Position numbers and translations under genes: made by a program. A model generated the notes under the pieces. It saw only the letters and a program-made list of their open reading frames with translations, was not told the DNA's origin and made no database searches. A stretch of 64,000 bases of DNA from Escherichia coli (GTDB taxonomy: Bacteria; Pseudomonadota; Gammaproteobacteria; Enterobacterales; Enterobacteriaceae), in assembly GCF_024502345.1 (NCBI RefSeq), contig NZ_JALDNN010000001.1; one strand, 5' to 3'. Below, one piece after another: positions 5,338 to 27,393 of the stretch; the first letter of the stretch is position 1; every line of letters begins with the position of its first letter.

Positions 5338-5778
5338 TGCACAGTTTGCTTTTAGATCATCAGGGCAAAAGTACCGGCCCAAACGATGACCATAAAAGAA
5401 ATGCCCATAAAGAAATATTTCACTTTACATCTCTCCGCGTAATTGCTGTTACGCCTGAATGACTTCATTACACCTGATACAGTGAGTTGACACCGGGCAA
5501 AACGACCTTAAAAGTCCTGTATTTTACCGTGGGCATCACCCCAGAATTCTGAGCTAAACTGCTCGAGACGGCGCTAATGTACGCCTAAAACTGAAACGAG
5601 ACAAGAGGCATTTTCTTATTTACTTTTAGTAACTTACAGGTGTCTCATATCGGCGACAGTTTAATTTCTGACGGTAATAATTAGATGTTCAGCGAAGGAA
5701 AAAACCTTAAGAAAAAAGCCATAAAAACCATGAGGTTATTATGGCTTATGTGAGGAGGTAAAGAGTCAGAGCAGTTTG

Positions 5779-6699
5779 TTAAATGTATAACGACGATTCT
5801 CCCACCGGGCGCGTTTTAAAGCGACGGTGGATCCAGAGGTACTGCTCCGGTGCACGCATGATCTCTTTCTCGATAATCTTGTTCATATAGGCAGCGGCTT
5901 GATTTTCATCTGTCGGGTAGCCTTCCATCTCTGGGGTGATGAACAAACGATATCCGCTGTAATCCGCTTTTCTTACCATCGTTACGGTCAACATGGCTGC
6001 GCCAGAGAGACGGGAGAGAACATAGGTGCCATTGGTTGTGGCGACATTTTCTACCGCAAAGAACGGCGCGAAGGAGCTGCCTTTACGACCATAATCCTGA
6101 TCGGGAGCAAACCATACCGCTTCACCTTTCTTCAGTGCACTGACAATGCCGCGCAGATTATTTCTGCCGATCATCGCTTTGTTAGAGCGCATGCGACCAC
6201 GGGTCTGCACCCATTCCATCAGCTGATTATTATGTGGACGATAGGTAGCCATCATTGGCTGACAAAGTCCCATCACGCGACCGCCCAGTTCCAGCGACAT
6301 AAAATGGACGCCGACAACCATTACGCCGCGATTTTGCATTTGTGCGCGTTTAAGGTTATCCAGCCCTTCAACATCAAACCATTTACGTACGCGACTGTCG
6401 GGCCAGAACCACGCCATGCCGGTTTCTACCAGCGCCATGCCGAGTGAACGAAAGTTTTCGGCAATCATCTTCTCGCGTTCTTCCGCAGAATGCTGCGGGA
6501 AGCAAAGTTCCAGGTTTTTACGGGCGATAGATTCACGCCGTTTCAGGAATGGTCGCGCCATTGCGCCAATACGCGTGCCGAGAAAGCAGAGAACAGGATA
6601 AGGAAGCTGTACCCAAAGCCAGAGTACACCAAGCCCAAACCATGTGAGCCAGTAGCGAGGATGTAGAAACTCGCGGGAAAATTTGCATTGTGGAAACAT
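5779..6699 (-). CDS. lpxP: Lipid A palmitoleoyl-ACP acyltransferase LpxP
   Basis: ORF 5779-6765; start placed at the internal Met (MFPQCKF…) for a 306 aa LpxL/LpxP-family protein; K-12 synteny. Confidence 0.85.
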   Translation of the reverse strand: MFPQCKFSREFLHPRYWLTWFGLGVLWLWVQLPYPVLCFLGTRIGAMARPFLKRRESIARKNLELCFPQHSAEEREKMIAENFRSLGMALVETGMAWFWPDSRVRKWFDVEGLDNLKRAQMQNRGVMVVGVHFMSLELGGRVMGLCQPMMATYRPHNNQLMEWVQTRGRMRSNKAMIGRNNLRGIVSALKKGEAVWFAPDQDYGRKGSSFAPFFAVENVATTNGTYVLSRLSGAAMLTVTMVRKADYSGYRLFITPEMEGYPTDENQAAAYMNKIIEKEIMRAPEQYLWIHRRFKTRPVGESSLYI

Positions 6700-7051
6700 A
6701 GTTACCTTCTGTAGATACGAATTGTTGTATCGCAGAAGATTCCATGTCGACAGCGGTACACTCAATTGGTTGGGCCATCATGTACGACAATGGTTCCTGT
6801 AAAGAGTGTAAAGACTAGTCAGGACATAACCACGAGGAGCATGAATGCGGTGGCTCTACTTTATCACTGGCTGACTGCTTTCAGCTACTGATTATTAATC
6901 GTGCAAAGTAAAAAATTTTCCGCACGCAATAGTGTTGCATTTAACATGCTGTTTTCATTGATGCTTAGCAAAAATTGCCAGAGGTTAAGGATTGTCTTAC
7001 TATTAAAGTGACTGAAGTTACAGGTTTTTTAGCGCGGCAGGAGGTTGAGCT

Positions 7052-7294
7052 ATGATTTATTTATGGATGTTTCTCGCCCTGTGTATTGTCTGCGTAAGCG
7101 GCTACATCGGTCAGGTACTGAATGTGGTATCGGCGGTCTCTTCTTTCTTCGGCATGGTGATCCTCGCTGCACTCATTTATTACTTCACCATGTGGTTAAC
7201 AGGCGGTAATGAACTGGTGACGGGGATATTTATGTTTCTTGCCCCGGCTTGTGGCTTGATGATTCGCTTTATGGTGGGGTATGGCAGGCGGTAG
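7052..7294 (+). CDS. yfdY: Small membrane protein YfdY
   Basis: 80 aa hydrophobic ORF in the conserved position between lpxP and ypdI. Confidence 0.7.
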   Translation: MIYLWMFLALCIVCVSGYIGQVLNVVSAVSSFFGMVILAALIYYFTMWLTGGNELVTGIFMFLAPACGLMIRFMVGYGRR

Positions 7295-7370
7295 TGGGTC
7301 AGGATGGCTCATTTGGGCAGGTGTTCACATCAGCATCAGACATGATTGCTCACCTGCCATGTGACAGACG

Positions 7371-7646
7371 CTATCGCACAGGATGAATAAGATAACTCGC
7401 CTTTGTCGGATAAGTGGGCGTGGTTTCTTCTGTGAGGTTTAATGGTGGCGCATCTTCTCTCATCTTAAACAAAAGCGCCTGTGATGGCTGAAATTTTGTA
7501 GAGTGAGTTGTCGTCATCGCTGATGTTTTTTCAGTCTCTTTATAGCTCCTCTCACTTCCACCACCAGAAATGGAAAATGCAAAAACATTGCATGCCATAA
7601 TAGAGACCAATAAAAATAAGCTAAAAAGTATTAAGTTTACTTTCAT
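7371..7646 (-). CDS. ypdI: Lipoprotein YpdI
   Basis: 91 aa ORF with a lipoprotein-type signal peptide (…LLVSIMAC); K-12 synteny. Confidence 0.7.
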   Translation of the reverse strand: MKVNLILFSLFLLVSIMACNVFAFSISGGGSERSYKETEKTSAMTTTHSTKFQPSQALLFKMREDAPPLNLTEETTPTYPTKASYLIHPVR

Positions 7647-7788
7647 AGAAAGTTATCCTGAAAATGGTTCACTGAGAAAGTACGATGTTATGGCTGTATT
7701 TACATATAATTAATCAATATTTACATCGATATAATAAATGACATCTCTTTGTGGTACATAAGAATAGTTCTCTGTGACAGGAAGCATA

Positions 7789-7844
7789 TTCCTACAATTG
7801 TAAGACTAAAATACTTCTTGCGATAATAACTACAACTGTAAGAT
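7789..7844 (+). promoter_or_regulatory. Two putative EvgA boxes (TTCCTACAATTGTAAGAC at 7789-7806 and TAACTACAACTGTAAGAT at 7827-7844) upstream of yfdX
   Basis: Inverted-repeat TACA-N-TGTA motifs resembling the EvgA consensus, 100-150 bp upstream of yfdX. Confidence 0.4.
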
Positions 7845-7941
7845 AACCCTTTCAAAATGACCGTTGCTCTCTGATTTCTCATTTCATGCTCACCCAATAT
7901 GATGGCGGCGTTTTCTAAAACTGTTAAAGAATGAGGAAAGT

Positions 7942-8577
7942 ATGAAACGTTTAATTATGGCCACGATGGTCACAGCAATTCTGGCATCTTCAACTGTATG
8001 GGCTGCTGATAATGCTCCGGTAGCGGCACAACAGCAAACTCAGCAAGTTCAGCAAACCCAGAAAACGGCAGCGGCAGCAGAGCGTATCTCTGAACAAGGT
8101 TTATATGCGATGCGTGACGTGCAGGTAGCGCGTCTGGCTCTGTTTCATGGCGATCCGGAAAAGGCAAAAGAACTGACCAATGAAGCTTCAGCTTTGTTGT
8201 CAGATGACAGTACCGAATGGGCAAAGTTCGCTAAGCCAGGTAAAAAGACCAATGTCAATGATGACCAATATATTGTCATTAATGCATCTGTCGGAATTTC
8301 TGAGAGTTATGTAGCGACACCCGAAAAAGAAGCCGCGATAAAAATTGCCAATGAAAAAATGGCGAAAGGGGATAAAAAGGGCGCAATGGAAGAGCTTCGC
8401 CTGGCCGGTGTTGGTGTAATGGAAAACCAATATCTGATGCCGCTTAAACAGACTCGTAATGCACTTGCTGATGCGCAGGAACTGCTTGATAAAAAGCAAT
8501 ACTACGAGGCAAACCTGGCGCTTAAAGGTGCGGAAGATGGAATCATCGTCGATAGCGAAGCACTGTTTGTGAACTAA
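7942..8577 (+). CDS. yfdX: Periplasmic protein YfdX
   Basis: 211 aa ORF with signal peptide; first gene of the yfdX-frc-oxc-yfdVE cluster. Confidence 0.85.
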
Positions 8578-9088
8578 TGCTGACAGGCAGTATATTGAGG
8601 TAAAGGATTTAACTCCCCCCAGCCGACAATTTTTTATGACCACAATACGACAGGTTGTGGTCATAAAATTATTTGGCACTCACGGTTCTATAAACTCGCA
8701 TTTTATATTCCTCAAAGTAAACCGCAATAATCCCGTGTCATCACAAATCATTTAATATGATATATTTTATGGTACGCTTTAAAAAGTGTAATCATACCCT
8801 TACTTGTAAATCACCGGCGCTTCTTACAGTTGTAAGAATAACATCACAAATGTCGCGACTCTCTCTGATTACCACGAACCAATATTTATCATATTCTTCT
8901 TTTCGTCCTCACTACTTACCATGCAGAAAGGAATTGGAAGTAGCGATGAAATGATTTTCAGTACTTGATACAGGAATGTAAAAATATCGAGTGCCGCTAC
9001 GATGATATTTTGCGGGTTATTTATAGAGGCGTTATGCCTTAAATAAACGCTAAATTAACACATATTTAATTAACTAATAGGTATTGCT

Positions 9089-10339
9089 ATGTCAACTCCA
9101 CTTCAAGGAATTAAAGTTCTCGATTTCACCGGTGTGCAATCTGGCCCATCTTGTACTCAAATGCTGGCCTGGTTTGGCGCTGACGTCATTAAAATAGAAC
9201 GTCCCGGCGTTGGTGACGTAACGCGTCACCAGCTGCGAGATATTCCTGATATCGATGCGCTTTACTTCACCATGCTTAACAGTAACAAACGTTCTATTGA
9301 ATTAAATACCAAAACAGCGGAAGGCAAAGAGGTAATGGAAAAGCTGATCCGCGAAGCTGATATCTTAGTCGAGAACTTTCATCCAGGGGCCATTGATCAC
9401 ATGGGCTTCACCTGGGAGCATATTCAAGAAATCAATCCACGTCTGATTTTTGGTTCGATCAAAGGGTTTGATGAGTGTTCGCCTTATGTGAATGTAAAAG
9501 CCTATGAAAACGTTGCTCAGGCAGCGGGTGGCGCGGCATCCACTACGGGTTTTTGGGACGGTCCGCCGCTGGTAAGCGCTGCAGCGTTGGGTGACAGCAA
9601 CACCGGAATGCATTTACTGATCGGTTTACTTGCTGCTTTGCTGCATCGCGAAAAAACGGGGCGTGGGCAACGAGTCACCATGTCAATGCAGGATGCCGTA
9701 TTGAACCTTTGCCGCGTGAAATTACGCGACCAGCAGCGTCTCGATAAATTGGGTTATCTGGAAGAATACCCGCAGTATCCGAATGGCACATTTGGTGATG
9801 CAGTTCCCCGCGGAGGTAATGCGGGTGGTGGCGGTCAGCCTGGCTGGATCCTGAAATGTAAAGGTTGGGAAACCGATCCTAACGCCTATATTTATTTCAC
9901 TATTCAGGAGCAAAACTGGGAAAACACCTGTAAAGCCATCGGCAAACCAGATTGGATTACCGATCCGGCATACAGTACAGCCCATGCCCGACAGCCACAT
10001 ATTTTCGATATTTTTGCTGAAATCGAAAAATACACTGTCACTATTGATAAACATGAAGCGGTGGCCTATTTGACTCAATTTGATATTCCTTGTGCACCGG
10101 TTTTAAGTATGAAAGAAATTTCACTTGATCCCTCTTTGCGCCAAAGTGGCAGTGTTGTCGAAGTGGAACAACCGTTGCGTGGAAAATATCTGACAGTTGG
10201 TTGTCCAATGAAATTCTCTGACTTTACGCCGGATATTAAAGCTGCGCCGCTATTAGGTGAACATACCGCTGCTGTATTGCAGGAGCTGGGTTATAGCGAC
10301 GATGAAATTGCTGCAATGAAGCAAAACCACGCCATCTGA
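9089..10339 (+). CDS. frc: Formyl-CoA:oxalate CoA-transferase (class III CoA-transferase)
   Basis: 416 aa ORF; CaiB/BaiF family signature; adjacent to oxc. Confidence 0.9.
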
Positions 10340-10392
10340 TATTAACGGGGGCTTCTGGCTCCCAATTTATAAAAATTTCGAGGTTATTAATC

Positions 10393-12087
10393 ATGTCAGA
10401 TCAACTTCAAATGACAGATGGTATGCATATCATCGTTGAAGCATTAAAACAGAATAATATTGACACTATTTATGGTGTTGTAGGTATTCCTGTGACGGAT
10501 ATGGCGCGCCATGCCCAGGCGGAAGGCATTCGTTATATTGGTTTTCGTCATGAGCAGTCGGCAGGCTATGCCGCTGCGGCAAGCGGTTTTCTTACCCAAA
10601 AACCGGGGATCTGCCTGACAGTTTCTGCGCCAGGATTCCTCAATGGTTTGACCGCATTGGCCAACGCAACGGTAAATGGTTTTCCGATGATCATGATTAG
10701 CGGCTCCAGCGACCGCGCGATCGTCGACCTACAGCAAGGTGATTATGAAGAGCTGGACCAAATGAATGCGGCAAAACCGTATGCCAAAGCAGCATTTCGC
10801 GTTAATCAGCCGCAGGATCTTGGCATTGCATTGGCGCGCGCTATCCGGGTCTCCGTATCGGGTCGCCCTGGCGGAGTTTATCTTGATTTGCCAGCAAATG
10901 TCCTGGCCGCGACGATGGAAAAAGACGAAGCGTTAACCACGATTGTAAAAGTTGAAAATCCGTCGCCAGCATTATTGCCATGCCCGAAGTCAGTCGCTAG
11001 CGCAATTTCGCTTTTAGCAAAAGCTGAACGACCATTAGTTATCCTTGGCAAAGGCGCGGCGTATTCACAAGCTGATGAACAGCTTCGTGAATTTATTGAA
11101 AGTGCCCAGATTCCATTCCTGCCAATGTCTATGGCGAAAGGGATCCTCGAAGATACGCATCCACTTTCTGCGGCAGCTGCGCGTTCGTTTGCCCTGGCAA
11201 ATGCTGACGTTGTCATGCTTGTTGGTGCACGACTGAATTGGTTACTGGCACACGGTAAAAAAGGATGGGCGGCAGATACACAGTTTATTCAACTGGATAT
11301 TGAACCGCAGGAAATTGACAGCAACCGCCCTATTGCTGTGCCAGTCGTTGGCGATATTGCATCCAGTATGCAAGGTATGCTGGCAGAGCTGAAACAAAAC
11401 ACATTTACGACTCCACTGGTATGGCGCGATATTTTAAATATCCACAAGCAGCAAAATGCACAAAAAATGCATGAAAAATTAAGTACAGATACCCAACCAT
11501 TAAATTACTTTAATGCATTAAGTGCTGTGCGCGATGTATTGCGTGAGAACCAGGATATTTATTTAGTTAATGAAGGTGCAAATACCCTGGATAATGCACG
11601 AAATATTATTGATATGTATAAACCACGTCGTCGTCTGGATTGTGGTACCTGGGGTGTCATGGGCATCGGTATGGGCTATGCCATCGGTGCTAGCGTGATC
11701 TCTGGTTCTCCGGTTGTCGCCATTGAAGGTGATAGTGCTTTTGGTTTCAGTGGGATGGAGATTGAAACGATTTGTCGATATAACCTGCCGGTGACGATCG
11801 TTATTTTTAATAATGGCGGCATCTACAGAGGAGACGGTGTTGATCTCAGTGGCGCTGGTGCACCATCACCAACAGATCTGTTGCACCATGCAAGGTATGA
11901 CAAATTAATGGATGCGTTTCGTGGCGTTGGCTATAACGTCACCACGACAGATGAACTTCGTCATGCTTTAACCACCGGTATTCAGTCGCGCAAACCGACC
12001 ATTATTAATGTGGTCATCGACCCTGCAGCAGGAACTGAAAGTGGCCATATTACCAAACTTAACCCAAAACAAGTCGCTGGTAATTAA
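10393..12087 (+). CDS. oxc: Oxalyl-CoA decarboxylase (ThDP-dependent)
   Basis: 564 aa ORF; ThDP-binding motif GDSAFGFSGMEIET…NNGG. Confidence 0.9.
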   Translation: MSDQLQMTDGMHIIVEALKQNNIDTIYGVVGIPVTDMARHAQAEGIRYIGFRHEQSAGYAAAASGFLTQKPGICLTVSAPGFLNGLTALANATVNGFPMIMISGSSDRAIVDLQQGDYEELDQMNAAKPYAKAAFRVNQPQDLGIALARAIRVSVSGRPGGVYLDLPANVLAATMEKDEALTTIVKVENPSPALLPCPKSVASAISLLAKAERPLVILGKGAAYSQADEQLREFIESAQIPFLPMSMAKGILEDTHPLSAAAARSFALANADVVMLVGARLNWLLAHGKKGWAADTQFIQLDIEPQEIDSNRPIAVPVVGDIASSMQGMLAELKQNTFTTPLVWRDILNIHKQQNAQKMHEKLSTDTQPLNYFNALSAVRDVLRENQDIYLVNEGANTLDNARNIIDMYKPRRRLDCGTWGVMGIGMGYAIGASVISGSPVVAIEGDSAFGFSGMEIETICRYNLPVTIVIFNNGGIYRGDGVDLSGAGAPSPTDLLHHARYDKLMDAFRGVGYNVTTTDELRHALTTGIQSRKPTIINVVIDPAAGTESGHITKLNPKQVAGN

Positions 12088-12156
12088 ATACTGACATCGT
12101 CTCCTCTTGCCAACTCATTATGCGATGGTGAGGGGACCCTTATCGGAAATACTATT

Positions 12157-13101
12157 ATGCTAACATTTTTTATTGGCGATTTATTGCCTATTATCGTAAT
12201 CATGCTGTTGGGTTATTTTAGCGGCAGACGAGAAACTTTTTCAGAAGATCAAGCCCGGGCATTTAATAAACTGGTATTAAACTACGCGCTTCCTGCAGCC
12301 CTATTTGTTTCTATTACCCGGGCAAACAGGGAAATGATTTTTGCGGACACTCGTCTGACCCTTGTATCACTCGTGGTTATTGTCGGATGTTTCTTTTTCT
12401 CCTGGTTTGGTTGCTACAAATTTTTTAAACGTACCCATGCAGAAGCAGCTGTATGTGCATTAATTGCAGGTTCACCTACCATTGGATTCCTGGGGTTTGC
12501 AGTTCTCGATCCTATTTATGGTGATTCCGTATCAACAGGTTTAGTGGTAGCAATTATTTCTATTATTGTTAACGCAATTACTATTCCTATTGGTCTGTAT
12601 TTGCTGAATCCTTCCTCAGGAGCGGATGGTAAGAAAAATAGTAATCTGAGCGCATTAATTTCTGCGGCAAAGGAGCCAGTTGTATGGGCACCTGTTCTGG
12701 CAACGATCCTGGTGTTGGTTGGGGTAAAAATTCCGGCAGCATGGGACCCAACCTTTAATCTGATTGCGAAGGCTAACTCAGGGGTAGCGGTATTCGCTGC
12801 GGGGTTGACTCTGGCTGCACATAAATTCGAGTTCAGTGCCGAAATTGCTTATAACACCTTCCTGAAGCTGATTCTGATGCCACTGGCGCTGCTTCTCGTT
12901 GGTATGGCATGTCATTTGAACAGCGAACATTTGCAGATGATGGTACTGGCAGGCGCATTACCGCCGGCATTCTCCGGAATCATTATTGCCAGCCGGTTTA
13001 ATGTCTACACCCGCACTGGTACAGCGTCATTGGCTGTGAGCGTACTGGGTTTTGTCGTCACGGCTCCCTTGTGGATTTATGTCAGTCGACTGGTTTCATA
13101 A
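12157..13101 (+). CDS. yfdV: AEC-family transporter YfdV
   Basis: 314 aa polytopic membrane protein; synteny. Confidence 0.85.
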
Positions 13102-13174
13102 TTAATCATGTTATTGATTTTACATAAACGCCGAAGTGTCTTTTCACCTTCGGCTTTTTTCAAGGCATAAGCAA

Positions 13175-14320
13175 ATGACAAATAATGAAAGCAAAGGGCC
13201 GTTTGAAGGCTTATTAGTTATCGATATGACACATGTCCTTAATGGACCTTTCGGAACTCAACTTCTTTGTAATATGGGCGCAAGGGTAATTAAAGTTGAG
13301 CCGCCGGGCCATGGTGATGATACCCGCACATTTGGTCCCTATGTGGATGGACAGTCACTCTATTACAGTTTTATTAATCATGGCAAAGAGAGTGTGGTTC
13401 TTGATTTAAAGAATGATCACGATAAAAGTATATTTATAAATATGCTTAAACAAGCTGATGTATTAGCTGAGAATTTTCGCCCAGGTACAATGGAAAAACT
13501 AGGGTTTTCATGGGAAAGGTTACAAGAAATCAACCCGCGCCTCATATATGCTTCATCGTCAGGTTTCGGACATACCGGTCCGCTAAAAGATGCTCCTGCC
13601 TACGATACCATCATTCAGGCAATGAGCGGGATAATGATGGAAACAGGGTACCCTGATGCTCCGCCAGTGCGTGTTGGTACCTCTCTTGCGGATCTATGCG
13701 GCGGTGTCTATTTATTCAGCGGAATAGTGAGTGCACTTTATGGCCGCGAAAAGAGCCAGAGAGGGGCGCATGTCGATATAGCGATGTTTGATGCCACGCT
13801 GAGTTTTCTGGAGCATGGTCTGATGGCATATATTGCGACAGGGAAGTCACCACAACGCCTGGGAAATCGCCATCCCTACATGGCACCTTTTGATGTTTTC
13901 GATACTCAGGATAAGCCGATTACGATTTGTTGTGGTAATGACAAGCTTTTTTCTGCGTTATGCCAGGCACTGGAGCTTACGGAACTGGTTAATGATCCCA
14001 GATTTAGCAGCAATATTTTACGCGTACAAAACCAGGCTATTCTTAAACAATATATTGAGCGGACGTTAAAAACGCAGGCAGCTGAAGTTTGGTTAGCCAG
14101 AATACATGAAGTTGGTGTACCCGTCGCGCCGTTATTAAGTGTGGCTGAGGCCATTAATTTGCCACAAACTCAGGCGAGAAATATGTTGATTGAAGCCGGG
14201 GGAATAATGATGCCGGGTAATCCGATAAAAATCAGTGGCTGCGCGGACCCGCATGTTATGCCGGGAGCGGCAACGCTCGACCAGCATGGGGAGCAAATTC
14301 GCCAGGAGTTCTCATCATAA
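13175..14320 (+). CDS. yfdE: Acetyl-CoA:oxalate CoA-transferase YfdE (class III CoA-transferase)
   Basis: ORF 13136-14320; start placed at the internal Met (MTNNESKG…) for a 381 aa protein; paralogous to Frc. Confidence 0.85.
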   Translation: MTNNESKGPFEGLLVIDMTHVLNGPFGTQLLCNMGARVIKVEPPGHGDDTRTFGPYVDGQSLYYSFINHGKESVVLDLKNDHDKSIFINMLKQADVLAENFRPGTMEKLGFSWERLQEINPRLIYASSSGFGHTGPLKDAPAYDTIIQAMSGIMMETGYPDAPPVRVGTSLADLCGGVYLFSGIVSALYGREKSQRGAHVDIAMFDATLSFLEHGLMAYIATGKSPQRLGNRHPYMAPFDVFDTQDKPITICCGNDKLFSALCQALELTELVNDPRFSSNILRVQNQAILKQYIERTLKTQAAEVWLARIHEVGVPVAPLLSVAEAINLPQTQARNMLIEAGGIMMPGNPIKISGCADPHVMPGAATLDQHGEQIRQEFSS

Positions 14321-14375: not shown

Positions 14376-17300
14376 TTAGTCATTTTGCTGACAGAAAACA
14401 GCAATCTCCTGGTCCAGCTCTGCAATGTGTTCTTTTACAGAGTTCAGCAGCTGAAGAATTTCAGGCTTACTGTCATCTGAAACAGGTGTTATTTCTAACT
14501 GATGGCTAATATTAATCAACTTTTGCAAATTCAGGATGTTAGCCGCACCGTGGATGCGATGAATACACTGATGGAAAGTTCTATTATCGCCAGCTTCTAG
14601 TGCATGAAACGCAGCGGGTAAATCTTTATGTGTTTCATGCTGGAAAGTCATGAGAATCTCCTGCATCAGTTGTAGATCGTTCGCCGTATTATTTTTCAGG
14701 GCTTCGATATCAAGGTGGCGATACTGAGGTGCAATATGCGCAACCTGGTGTAACTGACTTAAATGTGTTTTCAGTACATCCAGGGTCAACGGTTTGAACA
14801 AACATAAGTTCATGCCGCAATTTAACCCTTTTTCACGTTCGTTAGCCTGTGCGTTGGCTGTAAGCCCCCAGATGGGTAAGGAAGAATTTTGCTCACGGAG
14901 TTTGCGAGTCAACTCAAAACCATCCATATTCGGCATATTAACGTCAGTAATAAGCAGATCATAATGTTGCATACTGACTTTGTGTAGCGCTTGCACACCA
15001 TCAGTGGCTTCGTCAACATCATATCCTAATAGATTTAGCTGGCGTTTGAGTAATAGCCTGTTGGTCGGATGATCATCCGCGATTAATATGCTCAACTTTT
15101 CAGGTAGTGTGATAGGTTGTTCTGCTTTTGCCTCGACAGCCGCCACTTGTTGGGTAATTTCTACCGGGATTGTGATCGTAAATGTTGTTCCTATGCCTGG
15201 ATGACTTTCTAATGACAAATCACCCTGCATGTTTTTAATTAATTCTTTGCAGATCATTAAGCCTAAACCAGAACCTGTTTGCTGACGACCTGCACTTGTT
15301 TGGCTATAACGTTTAAACAGTTGTTGTTGTTCTTCCTGTGATAATCCACTTCCAGAATCCATAATCGTTATTTTGATTACAGCGTGGTTGTCATCAATGT
15401 GACCCAGGGAGGTCGTAATTTTTACTGCCCCCTCGGTGGTAAATTTGAGAGCATTACTCAGTAAATTTGATAAGACCTGCTTAAACGCCTGAGGGTCGAT
15501 CTTAACCAGGTAATGTTCAGGAAACGTACTGCTGCAACTTAATGCGATCGATTTGCTTGCAGCAATCGCACCGAAAGAGTGACAAGTGTTCTGGACTAAA
15601 GTAGGAATATCGACCCATTGTGGTTGAAGTTGATAGTTACCCGATTCAATTTTGTCGACATCAAGGATTTCACCAATTAAGCCGAGGAGTGATTGTCCGG
15701 TGGCGTAGGCAAGTGAAATCGCCTCCACCCGTTGTTCCTTGCTAAGACCAGAACCCGACAGAAGTTCCAGGAAGCCCATAATGGAGCTTATTGGTGTTCT
15801 TATTTCGTGACTCATTGTTGCCAGAAACTGACTTTTTGCGACAGTTGCATTGATCGCTTTATTTCTCTCTACTTCGAGTGCATGAATTAAATCACGCGTC
15901 TCGGTAATATCTTGCCAACCACAAATATAAACAGCATGTTCGCTGGCTGGCAGATTACATAATGTATGCCAGTGATTAATGCATCTTTTCTCGATGCCAT
16001 TATCAATTTCAAATACCTGTGTGTATATTGTTCGGTTTTCTTTCGTCTCTGCTGTGACTTCATGCGTATTAGAAAAAACATCTTTAAAGGGTGATTCACT
16101 GTTTTCTAATGGCAACATTGCATTTTTGTAGTAATCAGCAGTGAAATAATGTTCAAATGCACTATTGTGACTAATGACATTACCTTGCCAGTTTACAACA
16201 TAAGTTGGATTCGGTAAGGAGTCCGAGAGCGCTTTCCGGAATGATATTTGGTTTTCTAAATCACCCTGAATGACTTTACGACGACGAACTGAGCGTAACA
16301 GGTAGAATCCCCATAAAAGGCTACTGCCAACTAATAAAACGGATAATGTCGTAACAATATAAAATTGCTCGCTATAGAGGTCCCATGTGTCAATGGTCAC
16401 ATTGGGCATTTTAATCCATTTTTCGGTCAGGCGCAGAACTTCGCTTGGGGGGATTGCATTCAGTGCTTTATTAATAATATCCTTAAGTTCCGGTTCTCCG
16501 CGAGGAAAAGCGAACGAAAGCGATGCATTCGGAACGCCGGGAATAAGAAAATGATAAAGTTCATTAGGATAGTAATGGTCGATCATGTAACGCGAATTTA
16601 ACTGTGTCGCGACCAGAGCATCAAGTTCACCTTCCTTGACCTTGTGAAATGCAGCGCTGGCGTTATCGACTTTTATCCACTCTACCTCCGGATACATCTC
16701 TTTTAATTGCGAATGAAGCTCATAATAATATGGAATGGCAACTTTCATTCCTTTTTTTAATGTTTGTTCACTGTCAGGCGCTTTTTGCATGACAAAAACG
16801 TAAGGCGTTGTTATGAAGGCTTCAGCAAATAAAACATTATTTTCTCTATCTTCACTATAAATAGCACCGGGTAATATATCCCATCCGCCGGGATTCAGCT
16901 GTGTTCCAGCATGGATATTGTGTGAAACGGTGATCGGAGAAAAATTTAAACCTGTTTGCAAGGTAATAATATTAAGAATATCCCCCATAACGCCCCGAAC
17001 CGAGCCATTTTCATCCGTCATAGAATAGGGAGGAGAGTAAGGATTTTCCAGCACCTTTAAATCGGGATGCTGCTTAATCCACTGTTTTTCATGTTCAGTG
17101 AGTTCTAATGGTTTGTTCAGAAAGGCCAGGTTTCCTGTATCAAGCCAATTTTGTGATACTTCATAGCGAACTTCATTTGTTAAAGCATCAACAAATCGAT
17201 TGAGTACTTCATTAAGAACGACAGATTCTTTTCTGGTCAAGAAAAAATTATATTGACGCGGTGAGTTATAATATTTCACTACATTTAAGGAGTGAGTGAA

Positions 17301-17849
17301 ATAGCGGGAAATCATACTGCTGGTAATGATGTTACTACCAATAAAGTAATCATTCTGTCCGGCTGAGACGGATGCTAATGCCTGATATAAATTTGTAAAA
17401 GAGATAATTGTTGCTTTTGGAAATGATTGATGAATTACCTCGTCAGGGGGATAATTTGCTACTCGAGCAATATTTACTGGTTTTGATGAGGTAAGCGGTC
17501 GCATTGAATCGTGAAGGGTGGTGACCAGCGCCGGAAAGGTAATTATCAGTGGTTTGGTTGCAGCAATGTCATCATTAAGAGGCGGCGAAGCAACTAAATG
17601 TGATAACACTATATCGACTTCACCTTCTTCCAGCGCGTCCATTGCTTTTTGATGATCGGCGTATTCCCGGAGTGTTAATTTGATATTTAACGCTCTTTTT
17701 AAAAGATTTAAATAGTCAGCATTAATACCACGAACCCGTTGCTGCGAATCGGTATGCAACAACGTAGCCGTTTGGGACTTATGTACTGCAATCACAAGAT
17801 TTTTTTTGCTCGCTAACCAACGTAATTCCTTGTTGCTCAGACGTAGTGG
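14376..17849 (-). pseudogene. evgS: evgS hybrid sensor kinase, 5'-truncated (about 40 N-terminal codons and promoter lost) at the IS903-like element
   Basis: Reading frame translates …PLRLSNKELRWLASKKNLVIAVHKSQ… right up to the IS inverted repeat at 17850; no start codon or native upstream sequence remains. Confidence 0.85.
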
Positions 17850-18906
17850 GGCTTTGTTGAATAAATCAGATTTCGGGTAAGTCTCCCCCGTAGCGGGTTG
17901 TGTTTTCAGGCAATACGCACGCTTTCAGGCATACCTGCTTTCGTCATTTTGTTCAGCGCTCGTACCAGGGCCATAGCCTCTGCAACCTGACCATCGTAGT
18001 CACGCAGTGTCAGTGAACCCCCGAACAGCTGTTTTACCCGGTACATCGCCGTTTCCGCTATCGAGCGACGGTTGTAATCTGTTGTCCATTTCCACCGCGC
18101 ATTACTCCCGGTCATTCGCTGATTAGCCACTGCACGGTTACGGTCTGCATATTCACCGGGCCAGTAACCCGCACCTTTTCGGGGAGGGATAAGCGCGCTG
18201 ATTTTCTTACGCCGCAGTTCATCGTGACATAGCCGGGTATCGTAAGCGCCATCGGCGGCGGCTGACCTGATTTTCCGGTGGGTTTGCCGGATTAACCCGG
18301 GGAAGGCCTCTGAGTCCGTAACGTTGTTCAGCGACAGGTCAGCGCAGATGATTTCATGTGTTTTACTGTCAACGGCGAGATGCAGCTTACGCCAGATACG
18401 GCGGCGTTCCTGGCCATGCTTTTTGACTTTCCACTCGCCTTCACCGAAGACCTTCAGCCCGGTGGAATCAATTACCAGGTGTGCGATTTCACCCCGGGTG
18501 GGCGTTTTGAAACTGACATTAACCGACTTTGCCCGCCTGCTGACACAGCTGTAATCCGGGCAGCGTAGCGGAACGTTCATCAGAGAAAAAATGGAATCAA
18601 TAAAGCCCTGCGCAGCGCGCAGGGTCAGCCTGAATACGCGTTTAATGACCAGCACAGTCGTGATGGCAAGGTCAGAATAGCGCTGAGGTCTGCCTCGTGA
18701 AGAAGGTGTTGCTGACTCATACCAGGCCTGAATAGCTTCATCATCCAGCCAGAAAGTTATGGAGCCACGGTTGATGAGGGCTTTATTGTAGGTGGGCCAG
18801 TTGGTGATTTTGAACTTTTGCTTTGCCACGGAACGGTCTGCGTTGTCGGGAAGATACGTGATCTGATCCTTCAACTCAGCAAAAGTTCGATTTATTCAAC
18901 AAAGCC
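17850..18906 (-). mobile_element. IS903-like insertion sequence (IS5 family), 1057 bp
   Basis: 18 bp terminal inverted repeats GGCTTTGTTGAATAAATC (17850-17867) and its reverse complement (18889-18906) flank a single transposase ORF; the 9 bp flanks differ (acgtagtgg vs cggtcaaaa). Confidence 0.8.
17906..18874 (-). CDS. IS903-group (IS5 family) DDE transposase
   Basis: 322 aa ORF, C-terminal two-thirds recalled as near-identical to IS903 transposase (…NRRSIAETAMYRVKQLFGG…); true start may be slightly internal. Confidence 0.85.
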   Translation of the reverse strand: MKDQITYLPDNADRSVAKQKFKITNWPTYNKALINRGSITFWLDDEAIQAWYESATPSSRGRPQRYSDLAITTVLVIKRVFRLTLRAAQGFIDSIFSLMNVPLRCPDYSCVSRRAKSVNVSFKTPTRGEIAHLVIDSTGLKVFGEGEWKVKKHGQERRRIWRKLHLAVDSKTHEIICADLSLNNVTDSEAFPGLIRQTHRKIRSAAADGAYDTRLCHDELRRKKISALIPPRKGAGYWPGEYADRNRAVANQRMTGSNARWKWTTDYNRRSIAETAMYRVKQLFGGSLTLRDYDGQVAEAMALVRALNKMTKAGMPESVRIA

Positions 18907-19841
18907 CGGTCAAAATGAATCTACCAGGACTGACCCTGTTAGTGCTCGGTGTTGGTGGCTTGCAAATTATGCTTGATAAAGGGCGCGATCTGGATTGGTT
19001 CAACTCGAATACAATAATAATATTAACAGTAGTATCAGTTATTTCTCTGATCTCTTTAGTCATTTGGGAGTCGACCTCAGAGAATCCGATTCTTGATCTC
19101 AGTTTGTTTAAGTCCCGTAATTTCACCATTGGTATTGTGAGTATCACCTGCGCGTATTTATTTTACTCTGGAGCGATCGTCCTTATGCCGCAGTTACTCC
19201 AGGAAACGATGGGGTATAATGCGATATGGGCCGGGCTTGCTTATGCGCCCATCGGCATCATGCCACTATTGATTTCACCTTTGATAGGACGTTATGGCAA
19301 TAAAATAGACATGCGGGTGTTAGTGACATTCAGTTTTTTGATGTATGCGGTTTGCTATTACTGGCGTTCTGTGACATTTATGCCAACGATTGATTTTACA
19401 GGCATCATTTTGCCACAGTTTTTCCAGGGATTCGCCGTTGCCTGTTTCTTTTTACCCTTAACAACGATTTCGTTTTCAGGCTTGCCAGATAATAAATTTG
19501 CCAATGCCTCGAGTATGAGTAATTTTTTTCGTACCTTGTCAGGATCAGTTGGTACGTCGTTGACAATGACGCTGTGGGGACGACGCGAATCGTTACACCA
19601 TAGTCAGTTGACAGCAACCATCGATCAATTTAACCCCGTGTTTAATTCATCGTCACAAATTATGGATAAATACTATGGTTCGCTTTCAGGAGTTCTTAAT
19701 GAAATTAATAATGAAATAACCCAGCAGTCACTTTCTATTTCTGCAAATGAGATTTTCCGTATGGCGGCTATTGCTTTTATCTTACTTACGGTTTTGGTTT
19801 GGTTTGCGAAACCGCCGTTTACAGCGAAAGGCGTTGGGTGA
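18907..19841 (+). pseudogene. emrY: emrY MFS multidrug efflux pump, 3' fragment (about 310 C-terminal codons) abutting the IS903-like element
   Basis: Translation matches the C-terminal transmembrane half of an EmrB/EmrY-type transporter; sequence begins directly at the IS inverted repeat. Confidence 0.8.
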
Positions 19842-21294: not shown

Positions 21295-21525
21295 TTAGAT
21301 GATAAATGACAGCAGGAATGTGCCCGCCAGAGCGACGACTGAAGCGATAAATGTCGCTGTCGTATAGTATTTAAATGTTTCATTGAGCGTAGCGCCGCAA
21401 TATTGCTTCACTAGCCAGAAAAGCGAGTCCGTAACGATCGTGCAGCCAATTGCACCTGAACCGATAGCAATCGCAATAATTTCCGGGCTGATGTCGGGAT
21501 ACAGCGGCAGCACAATGATCCATAT
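21295..21525 (-). pseudogene. dsdX: dsdX D-serine permease, 3' remnant (about 72-76 codons)
   Basis: Translation is the hydrophobic C-terminus of a GntP-family permease; an in-frame stop lies 4 codons upstream of the first possible start, and csc sequence begins there. Confidence 0.75.
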
Positions 21526-21743
21526 TTATATTTTCTTCTCCAGGTTGGCGATGCCAGTTGGCATGTTTTACTTACTTGCCTATATGGTTACTCGTTGGCG
21601 AGAACAGAGGCGGAATTGGGGACAATTGTCCGGGAATTATTGTTATTTTTTATTGTATTGCTGTGTCAGGTGATAGGGCGTTGGATCTCGCCAGTGACGT
21701 CTGTTTCTGCTACAGTGCCCGTTTTACGGCAAACGGCTTGGGT

Positions 21744-22739
21744 ATGGCTTCATTAAAGGATGTCGCACGCCTGGCGGGAGTGTCGATGATGACAGTCTCC
21801 CGGGTGATGCATAATGCAGAATCTGTGCGTCCTGCAACGCGTGACCGCGTATTGCAGGCAATCCAGACCCTGAATTATGTTCCTGATCTTTCCGCCCGTA
21901 AGATGCGCGCTCAAGGACGTAAGCCGTCGACTCTCGCCGTGCTGGCGCAGGACACGGCTACCACTCCTTTCTCTGTTGATATTCTGCTTGCCATTGAGCA
22001 AACCGCCAGCGAGTTCGGCTGGAATAGTTTTTTAATCAATATTTTTTCTGAAGATGACGCTGCCCGCGCGGCACGTCAGCTGCTTGCCCACCGTCCGGAT
22101 GGCATTATCTATACTACAATGGGGCTGCGACATATCACGCTGCCTGAGTCCCTGTATGGTGAAAATATTGTATTGGCGAACTGTGTGGCGGATGACCCAG
22201 CGTTACCCAGTTATATCCCTGATGATTACACTGCACAATATGAATCAACACAGCATTTGCTCGCGGCGGGCTATCGTCAACCGTTATGCTTCTGGCTACC
22301 GGAAAGTGCGTTGGCAACAGGGTATCGTCGGCAGGGATTTGAGCAGGCCTGGCGTGATGCTGGACGAGATCTGGCTGAGGTGAAACAATTTCACATGGCA
22401 ACAGGTGATGATCACTACACCGATCTCGCAAGTTTACTCAATGCCCACTTCAAATCGGGCAAACCAGATTTTGATGTTCTGATATGTGGTAACGATCGCG
22501 CAGCCTTTGTCGCTTATCAGGTTCTCCTGGCGAAGGGGGTACGTATCCCGCAGGATGTCGCCGTAATGGGCTTTGATAATCTGGTTGGCGTCGGGCATCT
22601 GTTTTTACCGCCGCTGACCACAATTCAGCTTCCACATGACATTATCGGGCGGGAAGCTGCATTGCATATTATTGAAGGTCGTGAAGGGGGAAGAGTGACG
22701 CGGATCCCTTGCCCGCTGTTGATCCGTTGTTCCACCTGA
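21744..22739 (+). CDS. cscR: Sucrose operon repressor CscR (LacI family)
   Basis: LacI-type HTH (MASLKDVARLAGVSMMTVSRV) plus periplasmic-binding-like domain; start placed at the internal ATG at 21744 (331 aa) within the longer ORF. Confidence 0.85.
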   Translation: MASLKDVARLAGVSMMTVSRVMHNAESVRPATRDRVLQAIQTLNYVPDLSARKMRAQGRKPSTLAVLAQDTATTPFSVDILLAIEQTASEFGWNSFLINIFSEDDAARAARQLLAHRPDGIIYTTMGLRHITLPESLYGENIVLANCVADDPALPSYIPDDYTAQYESTQHLLAAGYRQPLCFWLPESALATGYRRQGFEQAWRDAGRDLAEVKQFHMATGDDHYTDLASLLNAHFKSGKPDFDVLICGNDRAAFVAYQVLLAKGVRIPQDVAVMGFDNLVGVGHLFLPPLTTIQLPHDIIGREAALHIIEGREGGRVTRIPCPLLIRCST

Positions 22740-22746
22740 TATTATG

Positions 22747-24180
22747 TTAACCCAGTAGCCAGAGTGCTCCATGTTGCAGCACAGCCACTCCGTGGGAGGC
22801 ATAAAGCGACAGTTCCCGTTCTTCTGGCTGCGGATAGATTCGACTACTCATCACCGCTTCCCCGTCGTTAATAAATACTTCCACGGATGATGTATCGATA
22901 AATATCCTTAGGGCGAGCGTGTCACGCTGCGGGAGGGGAATACTACGGTAGCCGTCTAAATTCTCGTGTGGGTAATACCGCCACAAAACAAGTCGCTCAG
23001 ATTGGTTATCAATATACAGCCGCATTCCAGTGCCGAGCTGTAATCCGTAATGTTCGGCATCACTGTTCTTCAGCGCCCACTGCAACTGAATCTCAACTGC
23101 TTGCGCGTTTTCCTGCAAAACATATTTATTGCTGATTGTGCGGGGAGAGACAGATTGATGCTGCTGGCGTAACGACTCAGCTTCGTGAACCGGGCGTTGT
23201 AGAAGTTTGCCATTGCTCTCTGATAGCTCGCGCGCCAGCGTCATGCAGCCTGCCCATCCTTCACGTTTTGAGGGCATTGGCGATTCCCACATATCCATCC
23301 AGCCGATAACAATACGCCGACCATCCTTCGCTAAAAAGCTTTGTGGTGCATAAAAGTCATGCCCGTTATCAAGTTCAGTAAAATGCCCGGATTGTGCAAA
23401 AAGTCGTCCTGGCGACCACATTCCGGGTATTACGCCACTTTGAAAGCGATTTCGGTAACTGTATCCCTCGGCATTCATTCCCTGCGGGGAAAACATCAGA
23501 TAATGCTGATCGCCAAGGCTGAAAAAGTCCGGACATTCCCACATATAGCTTTCACCCGCATCAGCGTGGGCCAGTACGCGATCGAAAGTCCATTCACGTA
23601 ATGAACTGCCGCGATAAAGCAGGATCTGCCCCGTGTTGTCTGGGTCTTTCGCCCCGACTACCATCCACCATGAGTCGGCTTCACGCCACACTTTAGGATC
23701 GCGGAAGTGCATGATTCCTTCTGGTGGAGTGAGGATCACACCCTGTTTCTCGAAATGAATACCATCCCGACTGGTAGCCAGACATTGTACTTCGCGAATT
23801 GCATCGTCATTACCTGCACCATCGAGCCAGACGTGTCCGGTGTAGATAAGTGAGAGGACACCATTGTCATCGACAGCACTACCTGAAAAACACCCGTCTT
23901 TGTCATTCTCGTCTCCTGGCGCTAGCGCAATAGGCTCATGCTGCCAGTGGATCATATCGTCGCTGGTGGCATGTCCCCAGTGCATTGGCCCCCAGTGTTC
24001 GCTCATCGGGTGATGTTGATAAAACGCGTGATAACGATCGTTAAACCAGATCAGGCCGTTTGGATCGTTCATCCACCCGGCAGGAGGCGCGAGGTGAAAA
24101 TGGGGATAGAAAGTGTTACCCCGGTGCTCATGAAGTTTTGCTAGTGCGTTTTGCGCCGCATGCAATCGAGATTGCGTCAT
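22747..24180 (-). CDS. cscA: Sucrose-6-phosphate hydrolase / invertase CscA (GH32)
   Basis: GH32 motifs (WMNDPNG, RDP, EC); start placed at MTQSRLH… (477 aa). Confidence 0.85.
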   Translation of the reverse strand: MTQSRLHAAQNALAKLHEHRGNTFYPHFHLAPPAGWMNDPNGLIWFNDRYHAFYQHHPMSEHWGPMHWGHATSDDMIHWQHEPIALAPGDENDKDGCFSGSAVDDNGVLSLIYTGHVWLDGAGNDDAIREVQCLATSRDGIHFEKQGVILTPPEGIMHFRDPKVWREADSWWMVVGAKDPDNTGQILLYRGSSLREWTFDRVLAHADAGESYMWECPDFFSLGDQHYLMFSPQGMNAEGYSYRNRFQSGVIPGMWSPGRLFAQSGHFTELDNGHDFYAPQSFLAKDGRRIVIGWMDMWESPMPSKREGWAGCMTLARELSESNGKLLQRPVHEAESLRQQHQSVSPRTISNKYVLQENAQAVEIQLQWALKNSDAEHYGLQLGTGMRLYIDNQSERLVLWRYYPHENLDGYRSIPLPQRDTLALRIFIDTSSVEVFINDGEAVMSSRIYPQPEERELSLYASHGVAVLQHGALWLLG

Positions 24181-24213
24181 TTTAATCATCCTGGTTAAGC
24201 AAATTTGGTGAAT

Positions 24214-24226
24214 TGTTAACGTTAAC
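24214..24226. promoter_or_regulatory. Putative CscR operator 1 (TGTTAACGTTAAC) in the cscA-cscK divergent region
   Basis: 13 bp palindromic motif, identical copy 64 bp away; resembles LacI-family operator cores. Confidence 0.45.
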
Positions 24227-24277
24227 TTTTATAAAAATATAGTCCCTTACTTTCATAAATGCGATGAATATCACAAA

Positions 24278-24290
24278 TGTTAACGTTAAC
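24278..24290. promoter_or_regulatory. Putative CscR operator 2 (TGTTAACGTTAAC)
   Basis: Second identical copy of the 13 bp motif in the same intergenic region. Confidence 0.45.
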
Positions 24291-24395
24291 TATGCCGTTT
24301 TGTGATCGAATATGCATGTTTTAGTAAATCCATGACGATTTTGCGAGAAAGAGGTTTATCACTATGCGTAACTCAGATGAATTTAAGGGAAAAAA

Positions 24396-25310
24396 ATGTC
24401 AGCCAAAGTATGGGTTTTAGGGGATGCGGTCGTAGATCTCTTGCCAGAATCAGACGGGCGCCTACTGCCTTGTCCTGGCGGCGCGCCAGCTAACGTTGCG
24501 GTGGGAATCGCCAGATTAGGCGGAATAAGTGGATTTATAGGTCGGGTCGGTGATGATCCTTTTGGGGCGTTAATGCAAAGAACGCTGCTAACTGAGGGAG
24601 TCGATATCACGTATCTGAAGCAAGATGAATGGCACCGGACATCCACGGTGCTTGTCGATCTGAACGATCAAGGGGAACGTTCATTTACGTTTATGGTCCG
24701 CCCCAGTGCCGATCTTTTTTTAGAGACGACAGACTTGCCCTGCTGGCGACATGGCGAATGGTTACATCTCTGTTCAATTGCGTTGTCTGCCGAGCCTTCG
24801 CGTACCAGCGCATTTACTGCGATGACGGCGATCCGGCATGCCGGAGGTTTTGTCAGCTTCGATCCTAATATTCGTGAAGATCTATGGCAAGACGAGCATT
24901 TGCTCCGCTTGTGTTTGCGGCAGGCGCTACAACTGGCGGATGTCGTCAAGCTCTCGGAAGAAGAATGGCGACTTATCAGTGGAAAAACACAGAACGATCG
25001 GGATATATGCGCCCTGGCAAAAGAGTATGAGATCGCCATGCTGTTGGTGACTAAAGGTGCAGAAGGTGTGGTGGTCTGTTATCGAGGACAAGTTCACCAT
25101 TTTGCTGGAATGTCTGTGAATTGTGTCGATAGCACGGGGGCGGGAGATGCGTTCGTTGCCGGGTTACTCACAGGTCTGTCCTCTACGGGATTATCTACAG
25201 ATGAGAGAGAAATGCGACGAATTATCGATCTCGCTCAACGTTGCGGAGCGCTTGCAGTAACGGCGAAAGGGGCAATGACAGCGCTGCCATGTCGACAAGA
25301 ACTGGAATAG
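24396..25310 (+). CDS. cscK: Fructokinase CscK (PfkB family)
   Basis: 304 aa ORF; ribokinase/PfkB motifs (GGAPANVA…, DSTGAGDAFVAG). Confidence 0.85.
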   Translation: MSAKVWVLGDAVVDLLPESDGRLLPCPGGAPANVAVGIARLGGISGFIGRVGDDPFGALMQRTLLTEGVDITYLKQDEWHRTSTVLVDLNDQGERSFTFMVRPSADLFLETTDLPCWRHGEWLHLCSIALSAEPSRTSAFTAMTAIRHAGGFVSFDPNIREDLWQDEHLLRLCLRQALQLADVVKLSEEEWRLISGKTQNDRDICALAKEYEIAMLLVTKGAEGVVVCYRGQVHHFAGMSVNCVDSTGAGDAFVAGLLTGLSSTGLSTDEREMRRIIDLAQRCGALAVTAKGAMTALPCRQELE

Positions 25311-25381
25311 TGAGAAGTAAACGGCGAAGTCGCTCTTATCTCTAAATAGGACGTGAATTTTTTAACGACAGGCAGGTAATT

Positions 25382-27084: not shown

Positions 27085-27157
27085 ACATCTACTTGAAGCG
27101 GCAGGGGATTGATTGGAATGGTATTTTTTAGATGTGAGAAATATTTTACCCGCTATT

Positions 27158-27358: not shown

Positions 27359-27377
27359 GAGTGCTATCTCCGAATAG

Positions 27378-27393
27378 GGAATCGAACCTGCAA
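27378..27393. repeat. 16 nt fragment identical to the argW T-arm (GGAATCGAACCTGCAA); not a tRNA gene
   Basis: Matches argW positions 38494-38509 (reverse-complemented strand) but flanking sequence cannot form an acceptor or T stem. Confidence 0.4.

Follow-up and report, generated by a model that had tools for sequence, protein, structure and literature searches.

An IS903B-associated deletion of evgA next to intact EvgA-type operators and an intact oxalate/formyl-CoA cluster in Escherichia coli

The oxalate/formyl-CoA cluster and its promoters

The five genes of the oxalate/formyl-CoA cluster, yfdX, frc, oxc, yfdV and yfdE, lie uninterrupted and in their K-12 order on the plus strand of the window, i.e., the whole 64-kb stretch of E. 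coli DNA that was analysed. The first gene, yfdX (7942-8577, 211 aa), encodes a protein with 99.1% identity to K-12 YfdX over residues 1-211, which also matches the NCBIfam model NF007645 at 378 bits. It is followed by frc (also called yfdW; 9089-10339, 416 aa), encoding formyl-CoA transferase (99.5% to K-12, residues 1-416), and by oxc (also called yfdU; 10393-12087, 564 aa), encoding oxalyl-CoA decarboxylase (99.5%, residues 1-564). The last two genes encode a putative transporter, YfdV (12157-13101, 314 aa; 100%), and the acetyl-CoA:oxalate CoA-transferase YfdE (13175-14320, 381 aa; 99.2%, residues 1-381). As all five tblastn matches are full-length and gap-free, at 99.1-100% amino acid identity, the initial annotation was right in describing the oxalate/formyl-CoA genes as intact.

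Upstream of yfdX, two EvgA-type 18-bp inverted repeats (no strand assigned) are present. The distal box at 7789-7806 (TTCCTACAATTGTAAGAC) contains the core motif TACAATTGTA at 7793-7802, and the promoter-proximal box at 7827-7844 (TAACTACAACTGTAAGAT) contains the core TACAACTGTA at 7831-7840. They are located 153 and 115 nt, respectively, upstream of the yfdX ATG at 7942. A third EvgA-type 18-bp inverted repeat, likewise without strand (8821-8838; TTCTTACAGTTGTAAGAA), lies upstream of frc and is the top site of the window. The resemblance of the TACA-N-TGTA motifs upstream of yfdX to EvgA boxes, which had been pointed out in the initial annotation, is borne out by their identity with K-12 and by their place among the three best matrix scores. 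Both boxes had been positioned correctly, but the strongest of the three, upstream of frc, had been missed.

The EvgA operator consensus used here is an 18-bp inverted repeat, TTCYTACA-NN-TGTARGAA, to which the distal yfdX box conforms at 17 of 18 positions, the proximal yfdX box at 15 of 18 and the frc box at all 18. Besides the consensus, a position weight matrix was built from four K-12 target sites outside the cluster (emrK/evgA, ydeP, safA and yegR). Over the whole 64-kb window, the highest matrix scores are those of the frc box (22.3 bits), the distal yfdX box (14.3 bits) and the proximal yfdX box (11.9 bits), in this order, with the next-best score being 8.9 bits. None of 200 simulated 64-kb sequences reached the score of the frc box; against this 64-kb null, the frc box alone is significant and the two yfdX boxes individually are not. 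The latter are validated at the sequence level by their position, their identity with K-12 and the promoter geometry they have in common with other targets, rather than by matrix significance. The motif TACANNTGTA occurs four times in the window versus 0.58 times expected, a count that was reached in none of 100 shuffles. Upstream of gadE, the consensus scan gave no EvgA site matching at least 14 of the 18 positions.

All three boxes are base for base the K-12 sequence, and they are located in promoters orthologous to the yfdX and frc promoters of K-12, which are those reported as activated by EvgA. According to PMC3720670, which cites Masuda and Church (2003) for these K-12 operators, both yfdX and yfdWUVE are activated by EvgA through its binding to inverted repeats in front of them. 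EvgA sites have been found solely at known direct targets, and frc is the gene with the strongest induction in an evgS-constitutive mutant (PMC4283999). Among nine diverse strains, none of the 48 half-site positions varies, compared to 9% of the intergenic columns. The sole changes within the boxes are confined to the central NN dinucleotide, and the frc box has the same sequence in all nine strains. By sequence, then, the yfdX and frc-oxc-yfdV-yfdE promoters have retained their known EvgA operators, the three 18-bp repeats, without change.

The distance between operator and putative -10 region is conserved as well. At both the proximal yfdX box and the frc box, a TCTGAT hexamer follows after exactly 25 nt, and a 25-nt spacing between the box and a TC[CT][GT]AT hexamer is common to five K-12 promoters, i.e., those of yfdX, frc, ydeP, safA and yegR. 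From this conserved spacing and from the alignment of the yfdX and frc promoters, we infer that the plus-strand hexamers at 7870-7875 and 8864-8869 are the -10 elements of the EvgA-dependent yfdX and frc promoters, respectively; both assignments are our own construction. Transcription from these promoters is predicted to start near 7882 and 8876. At the 3′ side of yfdX, a consensus scan identified a terminator-like hairpin (8632-8668, plus strand) between this gene and the frc transcription unit, which is consistent with the description of yfdX and yfdWUVE as separate units (PMC3720670). Upstream of the frc EvgA box, a sigma-70 promoter-like site, TTTATA-18-AATAAT, was found by scanning (8702-8731, plus strand). 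A genomic SELEX table lists a constitutive RpoD promoter for frc that has the same hexamers and spacing and carries an HNS flag; besides this promoter in front of frc, it reports a constitutive one in the interval from oxc to yfdV (PMC3946193). Such promoters could yield appreciable EvgA-independent expression. In an Rfam search, no credible leader element was found in the long frc 5′ region.

IS903B and the gene remnants at the evgAS-emrKY locus

Adjacent to the cluster, an IS903B element of the IS5 family (17850-18906, minus strand, 1,057 bp) occupies the site of a 2.92-kb deletion. The element shares 99.9% identity with annotated IS903B copies, has 18-bp terminal inverted repeats with the sequence GGCTTTGTTGAATAAATC at both ends, and contains a single transposase ORF that matches NF033579 at 357 bits. 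Its 9-bp flanks are unequal (ACGTAGTGG versus CGGTCAAAA). There is therefore no target-site duplication, as expected for an element at a deletion junction and not for a simple insertion. The deleted segment, which maps to positions 5574-8494 of the K-12 locus (L002), comprises emrY codons 1-201, emrK, the emrK-evgA control region, evgA and evgS codons 1-40. It may have been lost through an IS-mediated adjacent deletion or through recombination between two IS903B copies.

Remnants of both interrupted genes border the element. The evgS remnant (14376-17849, minus strand), which ends at the junction 17849/17850, consists of codons 41-1197 and shows 98% identity to residues 41-1197 in tblastn. The start codon, signal sequence, ribosome-binding site and promoter of evgS are all deleted, as is the upstream evgA-evgS operon context. 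On the other side, where blastn to K-12 resumes at 18906, the emrY remnant (18907-19841, plus strand) covers about codons 202-512. Using the K-12 proteins as tblastn queries, no match to evgA or emrK was found within the 64-kb window, which holds neither an evgA gene nor a full-length evgS with its own start. The destruction of the adjacent evgAS genes, as claimed initially, is thus confirmed. Its agent had not been named; it is one IS903B together with the 2.92-kb deletion, which extends through the autoregulated emrK/evgA control region and emrK into emrY.

Compared to K-12, the window has the same 18-mers, nearly all of both intergenic regions and the same gene order, and the proteins are 99-100% identical. 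What the window lacks relative to K-12 is the cognate regulator gene, the beginning of evgS and the operator of emrK/evgA autoregulation. With these three elements deleted, the boxes in the window are left without any known ligand in cis.

Age and distribution of the deletion

Comparison with related genomes indicates that the deletion removing evgA is strain-specific and very recent. A search of 5,426 complete E. coli genomes gave no instance of the IS903B junction of the window, and no metagenome contig was found to match it. Strain C 236-04A, with 99.97% identity over 17 kb, has intact evgAS-emrKY. Relative to this strain, the evgS remnant has one base change and the emrY remnant none, and neither contains an internal stop. 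Near the promoters, the sole change is at base 8749, a position beyond the boxes at which the window has the majority allele. Since the deletion is this recent, intact boxes are the null expectation, and the persistence of boxes and genes is uninformative about selection. For the same reason, the initial description of the locus as a natural test of regulon decay was overstated: a 99.97%-identical relative retains evgAS, the remnants together carry one base change and too little time has elapsed for decay. Signs of relaxed selection on the cluster were looked for as well, but two differences from C 236-04A in 5 kb of coding sequence are too few for an interpretation. One of them is oxc T436I (base 11699), a single substitution derived in the lineage of the window.

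Loss of evgA is rare in the species. The evgA segment is missing in 27 of the 5,426 genomes, and the gene is single-copy at the evgAS locus in 99.5% of them. The same element has struck the same locus elsewhere, i.e., as evgS::IS903B in 23CRST027, as emrK::IS903B in isolate 23 and as the replacement of oxc'-emrY' in ET450. In these cases, EvgAS and/or EmrKY function is lost and EvgA boxes are retained; the two other EvgAS-defective lineages, 23CRST027 and ET450, keep all three. The end points of IS903B differ between these strains and the window, so the events are independent. The deletion in the window spares the whole oxalate cluster, whereas that of ET450 takes half of it. A hot spot for IS903B at evgAS-emrKY is not claimed, because the roughly 10 independent events between yfdX and emrY (in about 16 genomes) match the rough expectation of about 12, which was calculated from about 4,600 chromosomal IS903B copies, a 12.5-kb target and 5-Mb genomes.

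Strain MP1, in which safA-ydeO is absent and EvgS is unresponsive to pH (Roggiani et al., 2017, PMC5706723), is comparable in being a natural isolate with a disabled Evg acid-response pathway and with downstream genes remaining. MP1 and other isolates, however, possess the genes and vary in the EvgS sequence or in the downstream branches, while in the window the response regulator gene itself is deleted. Altogether, the locus is a known system carrying a new but unremarkable allele, an ordinary strain-specific lesion of small significance beyond this strain.

Expression state of the cluster and alternative inputs

In EvgA-proficient E. coli, dimers of phosphorylated EvgA would bind the three boxes. 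A position of about -55 to -38 is predicted for the frc box and for the proximal one of yfdX, with a weak TCTGAT -10 element following after 25 nt, and EvgA bound there would activate promoters that are otherwise poor and that, at least for frc, lie within an H-NS-flagged spacer. IS903B removed evgA, the evgS start and the emrK/evgA control region, and the operators are therefore orphaned. Without EvgA, the cluster would lose its EvgS/EvgA-dependent induction at mildly acid pH, with basal expression remaining. We hold with good confidence that the IS903B deletion orphaned known EvgA operators, leaving the cluster with basal expression and without mild-acid induction by EvgS/EvgA, and that it is too recent for decay. 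By analogy with K-12 genetics, basal expression with loss of mild-acid induction is the most likely state of the cluster. The predicted losses comprise EvgS/EvgA-dependent acid resistance in exponential phase, EmrKY efflux and the inducibility of yfdX and the oxalate genes by mild acid.

The boxes would not be orphaned if EvgA were still supplied by a second chromosomal copy or by a plasmid. In a few genomes, the evgA segment indeed finds a match at two places, and plasmid-labelled records account for 20 of the matches. However, the copy number of evgA has a median of 1 and a maximum of 2 (5,441 places spread over 5,399 genomes), and the surplus includes genes split by an IS. Moreover, no EvgA homologue was detected by tblastn in the 64-kb window, and a second evgA would have no cognate kinase in the absence of an intact EvgS, unless evgS were duplicated too, making this source of EvgA highly improbable. 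It is just as improbable that the deletion is an assembly artefact, in which two like-oriented IS903B copies, located in evgS and emrY, respectively, were collapsed and the 2.9-kb segment between them was dropped. Such a collapse would also leave the element without a target-site duplication, and the junction pair of the window is found in no other genome. A real IS-mediated deletion equally leaves no target-site duplication, though, and finished genomes contain comparable real events, such as that in ET450, where IS903B stands in place of the region from mid-oxc to mid-emrY. Elsewhere, the window shows no break and is colinear with a finished sister genome.

Another possibility is that the cluster is not silent, owing to useful EvgA-independent expression through RcsB or another NarL-FixJ regulator, sigma-70 promoters or an oxalate-linked signal, in which case the loss of evgA would cost this cluster little. 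In Klebsiella pneumoniae, yfdX transcription under acid is controlled by RcsB (PMC6394985). The window contains a single sequence that agrees with the RcsAB box TAAGAATATTCCTA in 12 of 14 positions, namely GAAGCATATTCCTA at 7781-7794, which overlaps the distal yfdX box in its left arm. The constitutive RpoD promoters reported for frc and yfdV fit this possibility as well, as does the requirement of yfdW and yfdU for the oxalate-induced acid tolerance response (PMC3720670). However, a 12/14 match to the RcsAB box arises within 64 kb in 27 of 100 shuffles, and the degenerate RcsB motif from Klebsiella, with 65 matches in the scan, is uninformative. The scans thus gave no support for RcsB as the alternative regulator, its RcsAB-box match being at chance level over the window and the Klebsiella motif being non-specific. 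K-12, whose cluster acts in an EvgA-dependent way, has all elements of alternative input in identical form, and the promoters are unchanged from those of the EvgA-proficient C 236-04A, bar base 8749. EvgA-independent expression of this kind is accordingly rated unlikely. Still less probable is the more specific case in which the boxes themselves continue to work, with RcsB or another NarL-FixJ protein acting on their half-sites or on the RcsAB-like sequence that overlaps the distal one (7781-7794) and thus keeping the cluster acid-responsive. This would explain how strains lose evgAS at small cost, and it would make the strain and C 236-04A a natural pair to study operator sharing between response regulators.

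As the alternative-input elements are shared with K-12, they would represent a pre-existing parallel input and not a rewiring in this strain. Of the two states that had been proposed initially for the cluster, silent or rewired, the former, in the sense of basal expression only, is therefore the better supported, and nothing favours the latter, because K-12 has every candidate input in the same form.

The strain and the EvgA-proficient C 236-04A form a natural near-isogenic pair for studies of the Evg regulon. Of small general use are the species-wide constraint on the half-sites, with variation limited to the central dinucleotide, and the 25-nt distance between box and -10 hexamer at five promoters.

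The locus and its IS903B-associated deletion

The window corresponds to approximately minute 53.6 of the E. coli chromosome, in reversed orientation compared to K-12, with the gene order lpxP, yfdY, ypdI, yfdX, frc, oxc, yfdV, yfdE and evgS. The initial annotation described the yfdX-frc-oxc-yfdVE cluster as intact and the adjacent evgAS regulator as destroyed. The former is correct, since tblastn with the K-12 proteins gave full-length, gap-free matches for yfdX (7942-8577, 99.1%), frc (9089-10339, 99.5%), oxc (10393-12087, 99.5%), yfdV (12157-13101, 100%) and yfdE (13175-14320, 99.2%). The latter is confirmed as well: tblastn with the K-12 proteins found no match to evgA or emrK anywhere in the 64-kb window, the evgS match starts only at residue 41 (17849 down to 14379), leaving the gene without codons 1-40, and the emrY match is limited to the C-terminal three-fifths.

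The exact end points of the lesion are set by a 1,057-bp element at 17850-18906, which has terminal repeats GGCTTTGTTGAATAAATC, encodes an IS5-family transposase (NF033579, 357 bits) and shares 99.9% identity with annotated IS903B copies. It stands in for 2.92 kb of the K-12 evgAS-emrKY locus (L002 5574-8494), i.e., emrY codons 1 to ~201, emrK, the emrK-evgA intergenic region including its own EvgA box and evgL, evgA, and evgS codons 1-40. The 9-bp flanks of the element differ and thus show no target-site duplication, as expected after either an adjacent deletion mediated by the IS or a recombination between two copies of IS903B. The window contains a single IS903B copy, and an assembly collapse of two copies has a low prior probability.

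Physical loss of evgA is rare (~0.5% of genomes): of 5,426 complete E. coli genomes, 5,399 carry the segment containing evgA. This agrees with the reported presence of the Evg system in virtually every sequenced isolate (PMC5706723). Twenty of the matches to this segment come from records with a plasmid label, and it is found at two places in a few genomes. That a second evgA exists elsewhere in the genome of this strain is improbable a priori, and among the complete genomes the segment has a median copy number of one and never exceeds two copies. The junction pair of the window occurs in none of the 5,426 genomes, and its left junction matched no metagenome contig. The deletion allele is new, yet it is an ordinary IS-mediated, strain-specific lesion.

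The closest finished genome, C 236-04A (O125ac:H10), is colinear with the window at 99.97% identity (5 mismatches in 17,080 bp and 2 in 6,602 bp) and has an intact evgS-evgA-emrK-emrY. Compared to this strain, a single base is changed in the 3,474 bp of the evgS remnant, the 935 bp of the emrY remnant are unchanged, and both are free of internal stops. The deletion is therefore younger than a very shallow split. Two changes are derived in the window compared to K-12, 23CRST027 and C 236-04A, namely T436I in oxc (11699) and, in the evgS remnant, a Met-to-Ile substitution (15369), which are too few for relaxed selection to be inferred.

EvgA boxes and predicted promoter geometry

The motif TACANNTGTA occurs four times in the 64 kb against 0.58 expected, a count reached in 0 of 100 shuffles. 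Two copies lie upstream of yfdX, as had been claimed, in box 1 (TTCCTACAATTGTAAGAC, 7789-7806) and box 2 (TAACTACAACTGTAAGAT, 7827-7844), and a third belongs to a stronger box upstream of frc (TTCTTACAGTTGTAAGAA, 8821-8838). The K-12 promoters of other reported direct EvgA targets each contain a single 18-mer of this type: emrK/evgA (TTCTTACGCCTGTAGGAT), ydeP (AGCCTACACCTGTAAGAA), safA (TGCCTACAGCTGTAAGAA) and yegR (TTCCTACTTATGTAGGAA). A symmetrised matrix of our own construction, with only these four sites as sources, ranked the three boxes highest in the whole window (22.3, 14.3 and 11.9 bits; next best 8.9). Only the frc box is significant by itself, its score being reached in 0 of 200 simulated 64-kb sequences. 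The scores of the yfdX boxes were reached in 24 and 84 of 200, so that these are supported by their context, which is strong: all box bases in the yfdX and frc intergenic regions are identical to K-12, EvgA is stated to bind to inverted repeats ahead of both yfdX and yfdWUVE and to induce the two units (PMC3720670), frc showed the strongest induction of all genes in an evgS-constitutive mutant, and in the same study EvgA sites were confined to known direct targets (PMC4283999). The boxes and cluster elements are already known from K-12.

A hexamer TC[CT][GT]AT lies exactly 25 nt after the box at K-12 yfdX (proximal box), frc, ydeP, safA and yegR; K-12 emrK has TCCTCT at equal spacing. In the window, TCTGAT is found at 7870-7875 and 8864-8869, the predicted -10 elements of yfdX and frc, each 25 nt 3′ of box 2 and the frc box, respectively. 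If the hexamer is a -10 element, the box would span ~-55 to -38, which suggests a fixed activation geometry overlapping the -35 region at five EvgA-dependent promoters. Because of this geometry, box 2 is probably the promoter-proximal yfdX operator despite its weaker score, and box 1, centred 38 bp from the centre of box 2, an upstream auxiliary site. The hairpin that follows yfdX (8632-8668) resembles a terminator, in agreement with separate yfdX and frc transcription units. Upstream of the frc box lies a promoter-like TTTATA-18-AATAAT (8702-8731); the identical string is listed for frc among constitutive RpoD promoters in a genomic SELEX study, where it is flagged HNS (PMC3946193). In the simplest model, a poor, H-NS-associated promoter region would need EvgA. 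No structured RNA families were detected in the leaders.

Regulatory state of the cluster and constraint on the boxes

The cluster had been proposed to be either silent or rewired. Judging from K-12 genetics, it has most likely lost its induction by mild acid and retains basal transcription, and no sign of rewiring was found. Compared to the EvgA-proficient sister strain C 236-04A, the promoters differ in a single base (8749), which is outside the boxes and is the species-majority allele. yfdX is under RcsB control in Klebsiella (PMC6394985), and a 12/14 RcsAB-box match at 7781-7794 overlaps box 1; such a match, however, arises by chance in 27% of shuffled windows, and this one is equally present in K-12.

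Nor does the locus serve as a natural test of regulon decay. The deletion is too recent, intact boxes and genes are simply expected, and with so little time elapsed their persistence is uninformative on selection since the loss of the regulator. The sequences do reveal constraint on the boxes in EvgA-proficient E. coli. Nine diverse strains were compared, B2-type genomes and O157:H7 among them: 74 of the 806 intergenic columns (9%) are variable, all 48 half-site positions of the three boxes are invariant, and the only three variable box positions fall in central NN dinucleotides (7798, 7835-7836). All three boxes are also kept exactly in the EvgAS-defective strains 23CRST027, with IS903B within evgS, and ET450, in which IS903B replaces mid-oxc to mid-emrY; these lesions likewise look recent and tip-level.

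The ET450 deletion (frog isolate; L008, NZ_CP100958.1, 3191-6112) is independent. It extends from the 3′ half of oxc through yfdV, yfdE, evgS, evgA and emrK into the 5′ part of emrY, and spares yfdX, frc and the boxes. IS903B also lies beside frc in strains 0H23 to 0H26. Altogether, IS903B lesions from yfdX to emrY occur in ~16 of 5,426 genomes; no hot spot is claimed, because this about equals the random-insertion prediction.

Neighbouring features

The sucrose genes cscR, cscA, cscK and cscB replace dsdC and most of dsdX (21295-26629), leaving a dsdX remnant of 72 codons (21295-21513) adjoining dsdA, which is intact; 23CRST027 and C 236-04A are annotated with the same arrangement. No tRNA genes were found by ARAGORN in 26-35.5 kb of the window. 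A short lambdoid prophage remnant lies 3′ of cscB (27100-35000), with a TorI-like excisionase-type ORF (27158-27358), a CI/LexA-like repressor (29419-30132) and a lytic transglycosylase (32194-32649), followed by an IS2/IS3-family transposase (33762-34643).
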